NCBI RefSeq assembly: GCF_008000775.2
Contig: NZ_CP042905.2
Span: 480,001-512,000 of the forward strand
From: Promethearchaeum syntrophicum
GTDB lineage: Archaea; Asgardarchaeota; Lokiarchaeia; Sigyniarchaeales; Promethearchaeaceae
Direction of reading: 5' to 3'
DNA length: 32,000 nt
Shown: one piece after another, positions 3,792 to 29,063 of the stretch
How the letters are laid out: the number at the start of each line of letters is the position of its first letter
Numbering within the stretch: the stretch's first letter is position 1
Made by a program: the position numbers and the translations under genes
Notes under the pieces: model-generated
The model's database searches: none
What the model was told of the DNA's origin: nothing
Seen by the model: the letters and a program-made list of their open reading frames with translations, nothing else

Positions 3792-4883
3792 ATGGAAGAA
3801 AGGTCGATCACTATCGGCTTGCTTGGTGCAAACCACAATATAACCAAATTAATCGGAGAATCCCTTGGAACTCCAGGAACTCAGTCAGATTTACAATTTT
3901 ACAATCGTCTGGATTCAAATTTAAACATTGTATTAACCGGGGTTGCACCGATTGGATATCCTGAAAAGATTAAATCTTTATTGCAGACTTGTGCTGAAAC
4001 ATCAATTCATGTAATGATTATCGATGCTGAAACAGGAATAACTCCAGAAATAGGTGAAATTATGGTAGCTATGAATTTGTATGGTGAACATTTTAGTTCA
4101 ACAACAAAACCGATTGCTGCTATTGGAGGAATTACAACAGCAAATGAATGGAGAATTGAAGAAATTAAAAAGCAACTACCAAAATTAACTGCAAATACGG
4201 TTTTAAAAGATATGTCCCTCTATACTCTTAAAACTCGCGAGGATTATCAACATTTAAAGCAAGCAATAGTTGATTTGGATAAAACTATTGTCAGAACAGA
4301 TCCTAATGATGTTCCCTATAGCAAAGTGTTAATTGATCATGTGTTCCCAGTAAAAGGTGTCGGAACTGTTGCATTAGGTTTAGTTTTCCAAGGGCAAATT
4401 AAAGCAGGTGAAATGTATGATCTTATCCCTGTTCAAAAAAAAGTCATTCTTAGGTCTATTCAAAAGTTTGATCGAGATTTTAAAACCGCTGAACAAGGTG
4501 ATCGTGTTGGATTAGCTTTAAAGGGTGTAAAATCTGAAAAAATTGACCGAAATACCATTTTTTGCACCATGGGAGCATTAGAAACCACAGATCAGTTCAA
4601 ATCAAAATTTTATGTGTCCCCTTATTACCGCCCTCAAAATATAAATGGAAAAATTTCTCCAAATGATCCAAAAACCTATCATTTGATTGCAGATTTGGGT
4701 ATTAGTCCTATTAAATTAATAGATGGGGATGATATTAATCCTGGAAAAAATGGAATCATTACTTTGAAATTAGAAAAAGCGCTGGCACATGATTCTGAAG
4801 GATTAAAAGGGATAATTGCTGATTTTGGACCATTTGAAAATAAACTAAGAATTGTCGGTTACGTTGAATCGATTGGTGATTAG
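3792..4883 (+). CDS. EF-Tu/EF1A/SelB-family protein with degenerate G domain (predicted pseudo-GTPase)
   Basis: A clear EF-Tu domain-II beta-barrel block is present: 'VLIDHVFPVKGVGTVALGLVFQGQIKAGEMYDLIPVQKKVILRSIQKFDRDFKTAEQGDRVGLALKGV'. It is preceded by 'VMIIDAETGITPEIGEIMVAMNLYG', which resembles '[15 protein letters not shown]'. The P-loop position reads 'GLLGANHNITK' (nt 3816-3848), with no GxxxxGK[ST]. I can find no DxPGH or NKxD motifs. Confidence 0.6.
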   Translation: MEERSITIGLLGANHNITKLIGESLGTPGTQSDLQFYNRLDSNLNIVLTGVAPIGYPEKIKSLLQTCAETSIHVMIIDAETGITPEIGEIMVAMNLYGEHFSSTTKPIAAIGGITTANEWRIEEIKKQLPKLTANTVLKDMSLYTLKTREDYQHLKQAIVDLDKTIVRTDPNDVPYSKVLIDHVFPVKGVGTVALGLVFQGQIKAGEMYDLIPVQKKVILRSIQKFDRDFKTAEQGDRVGLALKGVKSEKIDRNTIFCTMGALETTDQFKSKFYVSPYYRPQNINGKISPNDPKTYHLIADLGISPIKLIDGDDINPGKNGIITLKLEKALAHDSEGLKGIIADFGPFENKLRIVGYVESIGD

Positions 4884-8774: not shown

Positions 8775-9395
8775 CTATGATAAGAAATTTTGAAGATTTT
8801 CTACATTGATAAAGTCAACCTGGGCATTTTGTGCAGCTTGCTCATCCACAACTGAATCTCCAATAAAAAGAACATTTTCACGTTTTAAATTATATGCGTT
8901 AATTACTCGAAGGATACCTTCTGGATTGGGTTTGGCATTTTCAACATCGTCTCGTCCAATGATTATCTTAAACTTATGAACCATTCCGCGTTGAATTAAT
9001 ATTTCCATAATAGTTTCATGGAAATTTGAGCTTATTATTCCAAAAAACGTATCATAGTGGATTATTTCTCCGATTTTATCTAATCCTTGATTAGCCAGCC
9101 ACATTGGAGAGTATTTTTTCTCATTTGCCGCGTCTACTTCACGATTTTCTAAATAATTATAGTAAAATTGTTTTTCATCTTCTCCCTTTTCTTTCTTAAT
9201 ATAGTCAAACATTGCATAAAATCGATTGAAATGAGTAATTTCTTCTCCAAATTTCGACTTGTAATGATTCAAAATATAATCTTTAATTTCTCCCCAAGAA
9301 ATATGTAAATCAAATAACGTGCCATCGAAATCAAAAAGAATTGAAGAACAAGTTTTAAGTATAGATTCTAATTTTTCCTTGGAATTAACAATCAT
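8775..9395 (-). CDS. HAD-superfamily hydrolase (phosphoglycolate-phosphatase-like subfamily IA)
   Basis: Four HAD motifs are present: motif I 'ILFDFDGTLFD', motif II 'IISSN', motif III Lys in 'AKPNPEG', and motif IV 'FIGDSVVDEQAA'. Confidence 0.85.
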   Translation of the reverse strand: MIVNSKEKLESILKTCSSILFDFDGTLFDLHISWGEIKDYILNHYKSKFGEEITHFNRFYAMFDYIKKEKGEDEKQFYYNYLENREVDAANEKKYSPMWLANQGLDKIGEIIHYDTFFGIISSNFHETIMEILIQRGMVHKFKIIIGRDDVENAKPNPEGILRVINAYNLKRENVLFIGDSVVDEQAAQNAQVDFINVENLQNFLS

Positions 9396-18729: not shown

Positions 18730-20130
18730 TTACCATGCTTTTTCTAATAATTCCCTCAATGATTCTGGATCCGGTTTTCGTGGATTGGAATTTACCGAAC
18801 CTCCTTTTGTATTCTCAATTATCCAATCGAAATCTTCTTTTAAAACGCCTAAATCCCTTAATTTAAGAGGTATCTGAATTTGTGAAAATAATTCTTTAAT
18901 CATTGATGCCAGTCTCTGAGAATTTTTCTCATCTGTTGCTTCTGGCTCATACTTTGTAAATAAATCCAATTGACTAAAAATTCGACCGATTCTGGCATAT
19001 TTATCAGCGCGATACTCTAAATTATATTCAATAACATAAGGTAAAAGCGCTCCACAAACTTTTCCATGTGGTAAATTGTATTTATAACCAATTGGATGGG
19101 CTAAACCATGAACCAATCCTAAACCAACATTAGAAAGTGCAATCCCTGCAAAAAATGATCCCAATAACATCTCCGAACGCGCAGCATAATCTTCCCCATT
19201 ATCAAAAACTGTCCTTAAATTCGGTAGGATCAGAAATATTGCTTCTAATGCATAAATATCAGCAAGAGGATGGCTTTTTATTGACACATAACTTTCAATT
19301 GCTTGAACTAGTGCATCAGCACCACTAGAAGCTGTGATTTCTGGTGGACATTTTAGCGATAATTCAGGATCTAGCAATATATACTTAGACATCAAATTGC
19401 TTCCTCGAATACTTTTCTTATGTCCCCTCGTTTTATCAATTAGAACTGCATTATTTGTGATCTCAGTACCAGTTCCCGCTGTTGTCGGGATTGCAATAAA
19501 AGGCAATCCTGGTAATTCAAAAGGTTTTCCTTCATGATAATCCTCAGCTAAACCACCATTTGTAACAATTCCAGCTGTTGCTTTTGCTACATCCATCACC
19601 GATCCGCCACCAATCCCCACGATGAAATGAACTTTTTCTTCAAGAGCCATTTCAACAGCTTCATTTACCATGGTGACATCTGCTTCACCCTTTCCACATG
19701 AAAAAACTATTGTTTCTATGTTGTTATTTTCACAAGATTGTAATATTTTATCCAAAGATCCTGATTTTTTTACTGATTCATGACCAATAATAATCAATAT
19801 TTTTGGACGCTTAATTTCTGCTTTCTTTATATGCAATAGCGTAGGATCCAGCAGATTAAAAATAGCTTTTGGAACATTTTTTACAACGCCCTTCCCAAAT
19901 TCGATTTTTGGTTGTGGGAATGAAAAAACAACATCTTCCCATCGTATATGCGGTAAAGGGAGTTTTTCTAATTCTTCGGATTTTTCTTGCTTAATTTGTA
20001 TTTTTTCTGTTAAAATTTTCTCTTGCTTCTCAATTTCTTTCTCAGAATTCTCTAAATCCAAGTCTGTGTCTTTTTGGTTATCGGGTTCTTTATTAATTTC
20101 TTCATTCATTTTCTTGCCAGATTCTTCCAT
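18730..20130 (-). CDS. Iron-containing (group III) alcohol dehydrogenase with ~65-aa Glu/Lys-rich N-terminal extension
   Basis: Family motifs present: 'GIGGGSVMDVAKA', 'AIPTTAGTGTE', and the metal-site histidines in 'GLVHGLAHPIG'. The ATG at 20130 is followed by 'EESGKKMNEEINKEPDNQKDTDLDLENSEKEIEKQEKILTEKIQIKQEKSEELEK' before the conserved domain begins. Confidence 0.9.
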   Translation of the reverse strand: MEESGKKMNEEINKEPDNQKDTDLDLENSEKEIEKQEKILTEKIQIKQEKSEELEKLPLPHIRWEDVVFSFPQPKIEFGKGVVKNVPKAIFNLLDPTLLHIKKAEIKRPKILIIIGHESVKKSGSLDKILQSCENNNIETIVFSCGKGEADVTMVNEAVEMALEEKVHFIVGIGGGSVMDVAKATAGIVTNGGLAEDYHEGKPFELPGLPFIAIPTTAGTGTEITNNAVLIDKTRGHKKSIRGSNLMSKYILLDPELSLKCPPEITASSGADALVQAIESYVSIKSHPLADIYALEAIFLILPNLRTVFDNGEDYAARSEMLLGSFFAGIALSNVGLGLVHGLAHPIGYKYNLPHGKVCGALLPYVIEYNLEYRADKYARIGRIFSQLDLFTKYEPEATDEKNSQRLASMIKELFSQIQIPLKLRDLGVLKEDFDWIIENTKGGSVNSNPRKPDPESLRELLEKAW

Positions 20131-20158
20131 ATTTCTCTCTTAGAAATAAAATTTCCTT

Positions 20159-20175
20159 AATAGTTTAAAACTATT
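20159..20175. promoter_or_regulatory. 17-nt palindrome AATAGTTT-A-AAACTATT upstream of the Fe-ADH gene / downstream of the E2 gene
   Basis: The 8-nt arms are perfect. The centre lies 37 nt upstream of the ADH ATG (20130) and 53-69 nt downstream of the E2 stop (20228). The TTTAAA core is TATA-like on both strands. Confidence 0.2.
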
Positions 20176-20227
20176 GCGAAAATGAAAAATGATTCTAATT
20201 ATAAAAATTCATGCTATGAAAAGAAAT

Positions 20228-20737
20228 TTAATTCATAGCATATTTTTTTGTCCATTCTTTAGCCTTATTATCAAATTTCCTGTAATTATTCAAGGCTTGA
20301 TCTCCCGCTTCAAAATTAAGCGGATCTGCAGGATTAAAGAATGGAGGTTCGCAATGAATTTGACCCTTTAATGCCTCTATAACATTTGTTAGTGTCTTAC
20401 TAGGGGTCCAACCGCTTGCCCCGGTTTTTATATCTACTTTCCCTACAAGTTCTGGGTTAATTAAATCCAAGCATATATTTATCTTACCTGGGGGTATCGA
20501 CGAATCTATATTCGGATGCCATAATAAAGTATGCTCATATACGTAAGGTGGGCTGAATGGGTAATTATCTCCCATTTTAATTTCAAACATGAATTTTCCT
20601 CCAGCGTAAGGCGTTCCTTCTCTGCCTGTAATAGTTAATCGTAAATGATCAACATTCATGCCCCATGGTTCTAAACGGACCAAATTTTCATCTTTAAATG
20701 TTTCAACAGCTTCAGTATAATCGACTTCTTCACGCAT
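20228..20737 (-). CDS. E2 ubiquitin-conjugating enzyme (UBC-fold) homologue
   Basis: The UBC core is 'ITGREGTPYAGGKFMFEIKMGDNYPFSPPYVYEHTLLWHPNI'. The HPN triad is at nt 20510-20518 and the active-site-type Cys in 'GKINICLDL' is the codon at nt 20471-20473. This is followed by 'GWTPSKTLTNVIEAL'. The track start is GTG 20746; the first ATG is at 20737. Confidence 0.85.
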   Translation of the reverse strand: MREEVDYTEAVETFKDENLVRLEPWGMNVDHLRLTITGREGTPYAGGKFMFEIKMGDNYPFSPPYVYEHTLLWHPNIDSSIPPGKINICLDLINPELVGKVDIKTGASGWTPSKTLTNVIEALKGQIHCEPPFFNPADPLNFEAGDQALNNYRKFDNKAKEWTKKYAMN

Positions 20738-20973
20738 ATTATTCACGATATTGTTTAATCCGCTTTCTTTTTGCCTTTATAAGTAAAATGGTTTTGAATA
20801 TTTCCGATAGTTAATCTTGTCTGGCAAAATTGGCGGGAAAATCTTGATAATTTTTATATAACTTATTATTTAATAGGATGTTAGAACTTAAAAAAAGTTT
20901 CAATTATATATTTAAATAAGAAGGGAAATCAAGCCTTTTAATAGTCGGGCAATCATTTTATTTGAATTTTACC

Positions 20974-20983
20974 AAAAAAAAAA
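20974..20983 (-). terminator. Oligo-T (T10 on minus strand) terminator candidate downstream of the flavodoxin-ferredoxin gene
   Basis: An A10 run on the plus strand lies 52 nt beyond the stop at 21036. It would separate this gene from the E2 gene transcription unit. Confidence 0.3.
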
Positions 20984-21035
20984 GCTAAATTCTATATCTA
21001 ATTCAAAAAATTGTATTAGGATTTGTTTCCCAACT

Positions 21036-26643: not shown

Positions 26644-26904
26644 TTATTGAATTTGTTTCTCTAATTTTTCAATTTCGTTTAGAATTTTTTGTTCTTCCTT
26701 TTCTTCAAGACTTCCTTCCATTACTTTTCTCTCAAGTTGTTCGATACGCTTTTGAGTCTTATTTTTATCTACAGAATAAGATTTTTTATACGAATTACTT
26801 GTGTTTTTTTTTGAGTATTTACTGCTTTTTTTAGGTCGTTCTGATTTATCTGAAAAAAGAGCCCGAGCTTCTTCAAGCGATAATTTTTTCTTCTTCTGAG
26901 GCAT
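26644..26904 (-). CDS. Small Lys/Ser/Glu-rich protein (disordered basic N-half, coiled-coil C-half)
   Basis: 86 aa: 'MPQKKKKLSLEEARALF...KKSSKYSKKNTSNSYKKSYS...RIEQLERKVMEGSLEEKEEQKILNEIEKLEKQIQ'. ATG start. Coding status is supported mainly by its tight 5-nt spacing to the downstream gene. Confidence 0.45.
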   Translation of the reverse strand: MPQKKKKLSLEEARALFSDKSERPKKSSKYSKKNTSNSYKKSYSVDKNKTQKRIEQLERKVMEGSLEEKEEQKILNEIEKLEKQIQ

Positions 26905-26986: not shown

Positions 26987-28132
26987 TCAATATTTTTGGC
27001 TTATTTTTTTCTTAAAAATTGAAATAAATTCAGAAATTTTCGATTTTTTCTCTTTCTTGTCTTTTCTCTTCAATTTTATGTTTGCTTTTACCATTGTCCT
27101 ATTAGGATCCATTTCCAGTAAAGCAGATGTAATTGCTTCATTGATTGAAGTCTTAAATTCAAACCCCAAATTTTGAATTTTTTCTGTGCTATACGTAATT
27201 GTCCTACCTAAATAATTGAGAGCTGCTTCAGAGAAAATAGTTTGAATCAATACATTCCGTTTTGCAATTTTTCTGATAACAATTAGGAATGGGATGAATA
27301 ATTTAAACAACCAATATGGCATTGATATTTTCGGAGGTTTTCTATAATAATATGCACAAAAATATTCAAATATTTCTTTATATGACACCGGAGCTCCAAC
27401 AATATTAAATACTTCACCTGAGATATTATCAAATTTTGTTAAGAACACTACAGCTCGAGCAATATCACGTGAGGCTGTTAAAGAAAATGTATCTTTTCCC
27501 TTATCAATTAATTTCGGAACGGGTAATGGTAAAACTTTAACTAATGAAGGAATTATTATGCGATCTCTTGGACCACCAATTGGACCTAAGCGAGTAACAA
27601 CAAAATTCTTCTTCAAATATTTTTTAGAAAATTTCCTCACACAATTTTCAGCAATTCTCTTTGTAACTGCGTAATAATTGTCTTTCTGTGGATTAATATC
27701 TCCGATAGGCGAAGTTTCATCGAATACTTGAATTTTCTCTTTATTTAGATACCCTTTATATACACTAATCGAGCTAGCATAAAAAAACCATTGTGCTTTT
27801 GAGGAAACAAATGCATCGAGCATATTATCTGTTCCTGTGCAATTTGGGGGGAATAATTCTTGAAAGGTGCTATATTGATTTACGTTGGCTGCAAAATGAA
27901 ACACATACATTATTTCATAATTTTTCATAATATTCTGTATCGTTTCAAAATCGAGAAGATCCCCTTCTTCAATCTGGACCCCGAGTTTTTTAAGAAATTC
28001 TGCTTTTTTTAAATCCCTAACCAAACAAATTATATCTGATGGTTTAGAAACTCCCAATTGATGGGTTTCAATTAGATATTCGGCGAGCTGACTGCCCGTT
28101 TGACCCGTAGCTCCCGTAATAAAAATTGACAT
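26987..28132 (-). CDS. Extended SDR: NAD(P)-dependent epimerase/dehydratase / 3-beta-hydroxysteroid-dehydrogenase-like protein with C-terminal hydrophobic segment
   Basis: Rossmann 'IFITGATGQTGSQLAEYL', catalytic 'YYAVTKRIAE' (YxxxK), the late hydrophobic stretch 'YWLFKLFIPFLIVIRKI', and a Lys-rich tail. The track start is TTG 28153; I prefer the ATG at 28132 ('MSIFITGATG'). Confidence 0.8.
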   Translation of the reverse strand: MSIFITGATGQTGSQLAEYLIETHQLGVSKPSDIICLVRDLKKAEFLKKLGVQIEEGDLLDFETIQNIMKNYEIMYVFHFAANVNQYSTFQELFPPNCTGTDNMLDAFVSSKAQWFFYASSISVYKGYLNKEKIQVFDETSPIGDINPQKDNYYAVTKRIAENCVRKFSKKYLKKNFVVTRLGPIGGPRDRIIIPSLVKVLPLPVPKLIDKGKDTFSLTASRDIARAVVFLTKFDNISGEVFNIVGAPVSYKEIFEYFCAYYYRKPPKISMPYWLFKLFIPFLIVIRKIAKRNVLIQTIFSEAALNYLGRTITYSTEKIQNLGFEFKTSINEAITSALLEMDPNRTMVKANIKLKRKDKKEKKSKISEFISIFKKKISQKY

Positions 28133-28168
28133 TTCAGTAAGATCCTTTCTCAAAACTATTTGTTCTCT

Positions 28169-28205
28169 TTATGTAGAGTTCATAATCTTATGTAGGTCTA
28201 CATAA
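28169..28205. promoter_or_regulatory. Candidate operator: three copies of TTATGTAG (one half-site + perfect 8-2-8 palindrome) in the divergent promoter of the 3-beta-HSD-like and SRD5A-like genes
   Basis: The sites are TTATGTAG at 28169-28176, TTATGTAG at 28188-28195, a GT spacer, and CTACATAA at 28198-28205 (the exact reverse complement). The region lies between the starts at 28132 (-) and 28296 (+). Confidence 0.35.
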
Positions 28206-28295
28206 ATTGAAGATAATTTCAAATGTATTTATCTAATATATTATTTAATAATTAATTGTATTCTTTTTTCTATTAAATTAGAATAAGTGAGAAAA

Positions 28296-29063
28296 ATGAT
28301 TAATTTCAGTGAAAATATCTTCTGGAATATTTTGTGGTACGTTTTAATTTCAATAGGAGTAATTGTCTTTATTATTCTCTTTTTTGTTAGTGCGGGATAC
28401 GGACGATATAATACTAAAAAATGGGGGCCACAAATCGATAACACCCTAGGATGGGTGATTATGGAATGTGTTCCTCCAATTATTTTCTTAACTTTCTTTA
28501 TCATTGGTGACAGACAATCAAATATGCCTGCACGTATTTTCCTACTTATTTGGGAAATTCATTATATTCACCGGGCGTTTATTTATCCATTTAAAATAAA
28601 AGGAAAAAAGCAAATCCCTATTTTAATTGTGATAATGGGTATGGTATTTAATGGTTTTAACGGATATATTCAAGGAAGATTTTTATTTCAATTATCTCCA
28701 ATATATTCGAATAATTGGTTTCTCACTCCGATGTTTATTACAGGAACTTTGATTTTCCTGTTTGGATTTATAATTAACTTGAATTCTGATCATATTTTGC
28801 GAAATTTACGAAAACCCGGAGAAGTAGGATATAAAATTCCCTATAATAGCTTTTTTAAATGGGTTTCATGCCCAAATTACTTAGGAGAATTGCTTGAATG
28901 GATAGGTTGGGCAATCCTCACTTGGTCCTTCGCAGGTTTATTCTTTTTCCTGTGGACAGCAGCGAATTTAGTTCCTAGAGCCTATTCCCATCATAAATGG
29001 TATCTAGCAAAATTTCCTGATTACCCAAAAAATCGCAAAGCTATTTTCCCTTATGTATTTTAA
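28296..29063 (+). CDS. 3-oxo-5-alpha-steroid 4-dehydrogenase (steroid 5-alpha-reductase, SRD5A/DET2) family membrane protein
   Basis: The C-terminal block 'FFKWVSCPNYLGELLEWIGWAILTWSFAGLFFFLWTAANLVPRAYSHHKWYLAKFPDYPKNRKAIFPYVF' matches the SRD5A catalytic region nearly position for position. 'GYGRY' lies near the N-terminus. ~255 aa, polytopic. The track start is GTG 28287; the ATG is at 28296. Confidence 0.9.
   Translation: MINFSENIFWNILWYVLISIGVIVFIILFFVSAGYGRYNTKKWGPQIDNTLGWVIMECVPPIIFLTFFIIGDRQSNMPARIFLLIWEIHYIHRAFIYPFKIKGKKQIPILIVIMGMVFNGFNGYIQGRFLFQLSPIYSNNWFLTPMFITGTLIFLFGFIINLNSDHILRNLRKPGEVGYKIPYNSFFKWVSCPNYLGELLEWIGWAILTWSFAGLFFFLWTAANLVPRAYSHHKWYLAKFPDYPKNRKAIFPYVF

Follow-up and report, generated by a model that had tools for sequence, protein, structure and literature searches.

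An intact ubiquitin-conjugating enzyme (E2) with enlarged active-site loops, encoded apart from its probable E1 partner in Promethearchaeum syntrophicum

The stretch of DNA considered here, referred to below as the window, comprises 32,000 nucleotides of the genome of the archaeon Promethearchaeum syntrophicum (contig NZ_CP042905.2, positions 480,001 to 512,000), and on its minus strand it carries a coding sequence for a UBC-fold E2 of 169 amino acids, closed by a TAA stop codon (20228..20737). A preliminary description of the window, made from its letters alone, had placed an open reading frame (ORF) with a UBC core at 20228..20746. This frame exists, and its outermost codon, an in-frame GTG at 20746, represents an upstream alternative start that the orthologues do not use; as all of them start with MREE, the ATG at 20737 was taken as the true start. 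The product matches the Pfam profile UQ_con (PF00179) over residues 26-165 (E=5.9e-24; 84.7 bits, the cut-off being 27). An identical 169-aa protein is on record in a 23-kb Logan contig (run DRR199588), 80 close homologues are nearly all of the same length, and relatives were found in 147 species genomes. As a family, these proteins are already known, being named 'ubiquitin-conjugating enzyme E2' by NCBI in many metagenome-assembled genomes (MAGs) of Promethearchaeota. The gene is flanked by a flavodoxin/4Fe-4S (Fld/Fer4) gene upstream, and by genes for an iron-containing alcohol dehydrogenase (Fe-ADH) and then a cupin downstream, as the preliminary description had it.

In regard to the fold, an HMMER sequence search matched 285 E2 chains in the PDB at E-values of at most 0.01, headed by UBE2E1, UBE2F and UBE2D2 with E-values between about 1e-16 and 1e-15. 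The AlphaFold2 model, built on 30 homologues (predicted local distance difference test score, pLDDT, 93.8; predicted template modelling score 0.90), places a helix at residues 2-13, followed by four strands and three C-terminal helices. When this model was compared with the PDB by Foldseek, 435 matches were obtained at E-values of at most 0.001, the top ones all being E2s, with UbcH5/UBE2D and UBE2E nearest (E ~3e-12; template modelling scores of 0.77 when normalized to the query length and 0.87 when normalized to that of the target). The best solved matches in both sequence and fold are thus UBE2D and UBE2E, at about 30% identity, with which the archaeal protein shares the HPN motif, the catalytic cysteine, the YPF.PP and W.P motifs and a C-terminal helix of the EWTKKYAM type. 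Unlike them, it has an insertion of 5 residues between HPN and Cys, another of 13 residues between Cys and Trp, and a divergent N-terminal helix.

The residues required for catalysis are in place. A codon check located the HPN motif (His74-Pro75-Asn76) at 20510..20518, the catalytic Cys89 at 20471..20473 and Trp110 at 20408..20410, all on the minus strand, the first two exactly where the preliminary description had put them. HPN and Cys89 align with the HPN and the active-site cysteine of three solved E2s, UBE2E1, UBE2F and UBE2G2 (C89 in the last), and both are invariant in 80 orthologues, each from a different species. The ORF at 20228..20737 therefore combines the profile, the fold and the cysteine after HPN that characterize UBC-fold E2s, with a spacing of 12 residues instead of 7, while the loss of the catalytic cysteine that marks UEV/RWD pseudo-E2s is not observed. 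Judged from sequence and model together, the product is a genuine, intact and catalytically equipped E2, not a UEV/RWD pseudo-enzyme, and the earlier impression of a canonical-looking E2 holds. That it would form an E1-dependent thioester with a ubiquitin-like protein is supported by the linkage of its relatives to an E1 gene, discussed below.

The segments on both sides of Cys89 are expanded, and the lengths given in the preliminary description proved accurate. Loop 1 (residues 77-88, IDSSIPPGKINI; 20474..20509, minus strand) places 12 residues between HPN and Cys, compared to 7 in UbcH5-type enzymes, and loop 2 (residues 90-109, LDLINPELVGKVDIKTGASG; 20411..20470, minus strand) places 20 residues between Cys89 and Trp110, compared to 7 in UbcH5. 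The HMMER alignment to UBE2E1 shows these differences as insertions of +5 residues in loop 1 and +13 in loop 2, and loop 1 is also longer by 5 residues relative to UBE2F and UBE2G2. Both loops were found to be free of gaps in the 80 full-length species orthologues. Moreover, they are the most conserved segments of the whole protein, with mean column entropies of 0.07 bits in loop 1 and 0.12 bits in loop 2, against 0.44 bits for the entire sequence. In the AlphaFold2 model, loop 2 forms a short helical turn and a hairpin-like segment (pLDDT 78-90).

An insertion of the same length and at the same position as loop 2 is present in the UBE2G2/Ubc7/Cdc34 (UBE2R) enzymes, the correspondence in position having already been pointed out in the preliminary description. 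The BLASTP alignment with human UBE2G2, in a sequence identical to PDB 4LAD, runs through loop 2 without a gap and with identical C89...W110 spacing. However, the two proteins are only 23% identical and their loop sequences are unrelated, UBE2G2 has no insertion in loop 1, and the net charge of loop 2 is -1 in the archaeal E2 and -3 in UBE2G2. In addition, UBE2G2 is absent from the best 60 PDB matches, where UBE2E, UBE2F and UBE2D rank first. The protein therefore has the insertion after the cysteine that is typical of UBE2G/UBE2R, without the acidic loop or the closest kinship, and the resemblance of its loop 2 to that of UBE2G2 is probably convergent. UBE2F of the NEDD8 pathway, which ties as the best PDB sequence match, also has an insertion after the cysteine, its loop being 7 residues shorter than loop 2; the archaeal E2, in turn, does not have the N-terminal UBA3-docking extension of UBE2F and UBE2M. 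In eukaryotic UBE2G2 and Cdc34, the loop of equal length at this position shapes the gate of the active site. By analogy, the loops of the archaeal enzyme probably shape such a gate as well, and would contribute to recognition of the donor ubiquitin-like protein, of the acceptor lysine, or of the E1 or E3.

A wider search through 1.84 billion cluster representatives retrieved about 30 related sequences with a 12-residue loop 1, in which loop 2 mostly comprises 14-20 residues, while eukaryote-type E2s appear lower in the list, with spacings of 7/7, 8/7 or 7/11. As the 12-residue loop 1 recurs among the related representatives, the loops are ancestral hallmarks of a wider E2/UEV-like clade whose named members are Asgard archaea, and not a peculiarity of one gene. 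In eight representatives related to the E2 (P0268, P0269, P0274, P0275, P0278, P0280, P0288 and P0295), the catalytic cysteine is replaced by S, F, L, N, Y or H; with the exception of P0268, they retain a loop 1 of 12 residues, and all are probably UEV-like paralogues from the same clade. Four distant relatives (P0076, P0071, P0075 and P0264; 46-54% identity), one of them labelled Thermoplasmata, combine a 20-residue loop 2 with a longer, 17-residue loop 1.

None of the usual partners of an E2 was recognized in its vicinity, in agreement with the preliminary description. Among the 29 ORFs of the window scanned with Pfam, there was no match to ThiF, ubiquitin, RING/U-box or JAB, NCBIfam returned nothing for five of the seven ORFs left without a Pfam match, and none of the small ORFs resembles a beta-grasp protein with a GG end or a Cys/His-rich zinc finger. 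Comparison with the relatives explains the missing partners by a linkage that has been broken in the clade to which the window belongs. When all ORFs of 88 E2-containing loci were clustered, 63 loci proved to carry a 527-aa ThiF-family gene, which lies downstream of the E2 at a median of 1.35 kb. If only loci in which the E2 is followed by at least 4 kb of sequence are taken into account, 55 of 67 carry this 527-aa E1, at about 1-2 kb from the E2. The genes are usually arranged as E2> HAD> <E1, and an S8 peptidase and a protein of about 1650 aa with TPR/MIT repeats often come next. We define the Lokiarchaeial module as the 169-aa E2 with loops of 12 and 20 residues and a 527-aa E1 within about 5 kb, usually with a HAD hydrolase in between. 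The linkage also holds in the reverse direction, since all six E1 proteins picked regardless of E2 have a UQ_con gene at 0.1-5.3 kb. Four of the E2s beside them are intact proteins of 169 aa, one is truncated and one is split. The truncated copy (L094:7945-8292) has 115 aa and adjoins an IS605 OrfB/TnpB gene, and the split one (L100:8163-8702) is divided into ORFs of 98 and 66 aa, by a frameshift or a sequencing error.

The link between E1 and E2 spans clades from 55% to 100% E1 identity, and in a Helarchaeote a shorter E1 orthologue, a 424-aa ORF that is 61% identical over the adenylation core, lies 8 kb from the E2. Several loci labelled as Thor-, Hod- or Hermodarchaeota share the Lokiarchaeial module. 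An Asgard E2 at 72% identity was also found in a contig filed as 'Candidatus Nanopelagicaceae bacterium' (L075, DATKTW010000105.1), which is probably mis-binned. The preliminary description had named orthologues that always sit inside a full ubiquitin cluster as an observation that would speak against a stand-alone enzyme, and the loci agree with this by half: the E1-HAD-E2 module is the usual arrangement, but a full cluster with ubiquitin, E3 and deubiquitinase (DUB) genes is not present.

The linked 527-aa protein matches Pfam ThiF at 5e-59, with the match split by a large insertion, and its best relatives by sequence in the PDB are Uba1, UBA6, UBA7, UBA3 and SAE2, ahead of MoeB/ThiF. The segment AACTLKGLPRNRNHC, with the motif AACTLKGLP, aligns with the stretch IPFCTLKSFP of UBA6, in which the aligned cysteine is A or S in other UBA6 entries, a replacement that fits engineered mutants of the catalytic cysteine. 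Across 26 homologues, C266 never varies, and neither do two CxxC pairs, formed by C248 and C251 and by C425 and C428. In the AlphaFold model (pLDDT 77), the core is of the Rossmann type, the insertion is helical and carries a flexible Cys loop, and the C-terminal alpha/beta domain is predicted well. All of the model's top 50 Foldseek matches are canonical E1s, with UBA3 first at 2.7e-23. On both sequence and model, this protein is a canonical-type E1 of the UBA3/Uba1 kind and not a MoeB/ThiF sulfur-transfer enzyme, in line with some database records which label it 'putative E1-like ubiquitin activating protein'. UBA3 is structurally the closest to it; however, the archaeal E1 consists of one chain of 527 aa, and no NAE1-like partner was seen nearby.

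Twelve loci have enough room downstream but no E1. Nine of them constitute the clade of the window, i.e., the window itself, Promethearchaeum (L011-L013), Lokiarchaeum ossiferum (L014), Harpocratesius (L016), and L017, L018 and L020; two belong to a second clade (L002, L009) and the last one is L082. In the window's clade, an E1 is missing from the +/-10 kb around the E2 at all nine loci, each with at least 4 kb downstream, the complete chromosome of L. ossiferum included. The E2 of the window is thus orthologous to those of the module (70-96% identity) without having an E1 beside it. It retains every catalytic and loop residue, as do the other E2s of its clade, and strong purifying selection still acts on it (dN/dS 0.03-0.05 against L011-L013 and L018). 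The nearest orthologues, at 93-95% identity, come from Promethearchaeum sp. MAGs, and the order Fld/Fer4 > E2 > Fe-ADH > cupin is common to three independent Promethearchaeum MAGs and, in part, to Harpocratesius (L016) and the two unclassified MAGs L017 and L018. In L. ossiferum, a 95-aa ORF that precedes the E2 was also considered and appears spurious. As the E2 lies 1-2 genes from the E1 in most relatives, its solitary position is most economically read, from gene order, as a derived, lineage-specific rearrangement in one clade.

Taken together, we regard it as probable, with good confidence, that the E2 of the window is an ordinary, catalytically competent class-I (core-only) enzyme that moved away from its E1 module and is charged in trans by the canonical-type E1 of 527 aa. 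In such a pathway, the E1 would adenylate the C-terminal glycine of a ubiquitin-like protein and load this protein onto its own cysteine, and transthiolation would then pass it to Cys89 of the E2, after which Asn76 of the HPN motif would support the attack by a substrate lysine, with or without an E3 of the RING type. The natural partner would most likely be the E1 with an adenylation domain, an inserted helical domain with the invariant catalytic cysteine, two CxxC pairs and a C-terminal alpha/beta domain, which in most Lokiarchaeia is encoded one to two genes off in the conserved E2> HAD> <E1 module. In the clade of Promethearchaeum, Lokiarchaeum and Harpocratesius, the E2 would have left this module to become a single gene between the flavodoxin/ferredoxin and Fe-ADH genes, and because it is now apart from the E1, charging would have to occur in trans. 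Of the two options in the preliminary description, a stand-alone E2 working in trans or one in a non-canonical role, the former is the best reading, while the isolated position lends no support to the latter, given the E1 found near the E2 in 55 of 67 loci and in six of six look-ups.

Several observations weigh against this explanation. Linkage in relatives is indirect evidence of an E1-E2 partnership, and many of the loci represent one clade at about 72% E2 identity, so that shared ancestry inflates the counts. Every E1 retrieved, through two homology searches, a cluster listing and six contig look-ups, comes from a lineage that keeps the linkage to E2, and an E1, a ubiquitin gene or an E3 elsewhere in the genome of the window was not confirmed. 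A search with human ubiquitin and NEDD8 (tblastn) gave only chance matches in the 102 E2/E1 loci (1.5 Mb), without any ubiquitin-like gene. The N-terminal helix of the E2 is too divergent for Pfam UQ_con, whose match starts at profile position 20, and this helix is the usual contact for E1 and E3. On the other hand, P. syntrophicum is known to encode and express ubiquitin (PMC11316595; bioRxiv 10.1101/2025.11.01.685982), and genes of the ubiquitin system in Lokiarchaeota are reported to lie together in a discrete region (PMC9192718).

The same absence of an E1 could mean that the dedicated E1 was lost in the Promethearchaeum/Lokiarchaeum clade, and that the E2 now uses another E1 paralogue and perhaps another ubiquitin-like protein. 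Such a partner switch is compatible with the nine loci free of E1, including the complete chromosome of L. ossiferum, and with the fact that no E1 assignable to this clade appears among the best 240 E1 homologues listed; however, these were the best 120 matches of each search and bear almost no taxon names, so they do not demonstrate its absence. Furthermore, the active site and loops barely differ from those of E1-linked orthologues, and the E2 is subject to strong purifying selection, which points to an unchanged biochemical partner, and we therefore consider a switch unlikely. Another alternative is a non-canonical or non-catalytic role, either as a UEV/RWD-like pseudo-E2 that binds ubiquitin, or as an E2 acting outside protein conjugation. 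Close relatives with a 12-residue loop 1 and a replaced cysteine, together with the isolated position of the gene in the window, could be taken as hints in this direction, but HPN and Cys89 are kept in this protein and in all 80 species orthologues, Cys89 coincides with the catalytic cysteine of the solved enzymes, and the UBC core is complete, making such a role very improbable.

Bacterial defence also employs E1- and E2-like enzymes, and an anti-phage or mobile system of the Bil or CBASS type that has lost its neighbours in the window could leave a lone E2. The E1 of the relatives does match the PADLOC 'E1-E2' models, through its adenylation domain. The E2, however, has no PADLOC match, and the hallmarks of prokaryotic defence E1/E2 systems (CBASS Cap2, Bil) are missing, since the neighbours of the E2 in the window are metabolic genes and the Pfam scan detected no mobile-element genes next to it. 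The family is distributed over its 147 species genomes with a conserved synteny of housekeeping type, no patchy, island-like distribution with integrases or defence genes was seen around the orthologues, and the E1 is closer to eukaryotic canonical E1s than to any prokaryotic type. A defence origin is accordingly hard to credit. As for the explanation with the least probability of all, a break or chimera in the assembly might have split the E2 from a ubiquitin cluster, as the preliminary description had allowed for and as the derivation of the window from a metagenomic assembly might suggest; the gene order common to three independent Promethearchaeum MAGs, and in part to L016, L017 and L018, effectively rules out such an artefact.

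It is also conceivable, although we hold it to be a long shot, that the E2, the UBA3-like single-chain E1, the PpaX-like HAD and an RWD-RWD-RING-like protein form a second conjugation pathway of Lokiarchaeia and their close relatives, with a modifier of its own and distinct from the ESCRT-linked system, in which the loops would serve as a specificity device, and which would be rewired or without E1 in Promethearchaeum and Lokiarchaeum. The E2 and UEV proteins of the Asgard ubiquitin-ESCRT system belong to the same superfamily and occur in the same organisms (PMC9192718; bioRxiv 10.1101/2023.07.25.550441). Around the E2 family studied here, none of the loci examined has an ESCRT or ubiquitin gene at a distance of up to 10 kb. 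The ubiquitin-system region of Lokiarchaeota has been described as lying apart from the ESCRT genes (PMC9192718).

A candidate for the fourth component is a 663-aa protein encoded two genes from the E2 in L002 (L002:11214-13205, minus strand), a locus of the clade of P0015, with UQ_con-like and RWD matches above the cut-offs. A 433-aa orthologue, in which the UQ_con/RWD matches are weak, is encoded directly beside the E1 in the Helarchaeote (L005:1875-3176, minus strand). The two proteins are 39% identical (1e-83), and each ends in a Cys/His-rich region that matches Prok-RING_1 weakly; they are E3 candidates. Since such a gene lies beside the E2 in one lineage and beside the E1 in another, the E2, the E1 and the RWD/RING-like protein are linked across lineages, even though a search of all E2 loci found the latter only in L002 and L005. 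The unannotated genes for proteins of 408-433 aa that lie between E1 and E2 in L095 and L098 were examined as well and are unrelated to it.

The HAD hydrolase nearly always lies between the E2 and the convergent E1 (typically as in L030:10001-13447; also in L006, L007, L091, L094, L098, L100 and L101), and in NCBIfam it matches the pyrophosphatase PpaX best, though below the cut-off. Since removal of pyrophosphate would pull the adenylation by E1 forward, the HAD may have a function within the module, which we offer as an idea only. The window contains a HAD gene of the same PpaX-like subfamily (8775-9395, minus strand), with about 30% identity to the HADs of the module; it adjoins a DEAD-box helicase gene and lies 11 kb downstream of the E2, on the same strand as the latter. 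This gene may be left over from the broken module, although orthology is not established. Giant proteins with TPR/MIT-like repeats and coiled-coil spacers, of about 1650 and up to 2127 aa, flank the E1 in a total of 52 loci (for example L061:14637-19604, minus strand), and shorter versions of 498-679 aa do so in L098 and L100. In eukaryotes, MIT domains bind ESCRT-III.

The E1-E2 cascade of Caldiarchaeum subterraneum is likewise eukaryote-like and includes an E1 with an inserted catalytic-Cys domain, but there ubiquitin, E1, E2, RING and Rpn11 are all encoded in one operon (PMC5654768), whereas the window carries none of the other components and the relatives carry only E1 and E2 with the HAD in between. 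The arrangement of the operon-type clusters of Caldiarchaeum, Odin- and Heimdallarchaeota is therefore not observed: ubiquitin, E1, RING and JAB/Rpn11 are all absent from the 32-kb window, and in the relatives the E2-linked partners are restricted to the E1, plus the RWD/RING-like gene in two lineages. Our searches of the literature brought up no account of this E2 subfamily, of its loops or of the E2-HAD-E1 module.

Concerning the surroundings of the gene, the G+C content of the window is 30.5%, and 31.1% has been reported for P. syntrophicum (PMC11316595). The upstream intergenic region (20738..21035, minus strand) measures 298 nt when counted from the ATG and 289 nt when counted from the GTG. 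At 20974-20983, 53-62 nt past the stop of the upstream flavodoxin/Fer4 gene, it has a T10 run that would fit an oligo-T terminator of that gene, and a TTATAAA box at 20776-20782, about 40 nt ahead of the ATG, would fit a separate archaeal promoter for the E2, both roles being assigned from general knowledge of archaeal transcription signals. The 97-nt downstream intergenic region (20131..20227, minus strand) contains T5 runs and an A/T-rich box ahead of the Fe-ADH gene. The gap and the T10 run had both been reported in the preliminary description, and the E2 probably forms its own transcription unit, as proposed there. In the Fe-ADH itself (18730-20130, minus strand), the Pfam domain is preceded by an N-terminal extension of about 100 residues, rich in Glu and Lys, and the similar length of its relatives (458-476 aa) suggests that the extension is conserved.

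Some other genes of the window deserve mention. An 86-aa, Lys-rich coiled-coil protein without a family match (26644-26904, minus strand) is conserved in the window's clade, its gene immediately preceding that of the E2 in L015 and lying close to it in L016 and L017; it was considered as a candidate modifier and rejected, as a Lys-rich coiled coil without a GG tail. At 26987-29063, a gene of the 3-oxo-5-alpha-steroid 4-dehydrogenase family (Steroid_dh, 2.7e-52) is divergent from a gene for a reductase of the 3-beta-HSD/epimerase type, both families carrying names that derive from eukaryotic steroid enzymes. Finally, a 363-aa protein (3792-4883, plus strand) has EF-Tu domain 2 as its sole Pfam match, with no recognizable GTPase domain.

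Asgard E2s are important for tracing the origin of eukaryotic ubiquitin signalling, to which the single gene at 20228..20737 adds little by itself. Its relatives, however, provide a concrete E1-E2 pair for reconstitution, namely the UBA3-like E1 of 527 aa and the E2 of 169 aa, and the enlarged loops around the active site, the most constrained part of the enzyme, define a wider E2/UEV-like clade. The cultured genera Promethearchaeum and Lokiarchaeum appear to have broken the linkage between E1 and E2, which matters whenever partners are assigned by gene neighbourhood in these organisms.

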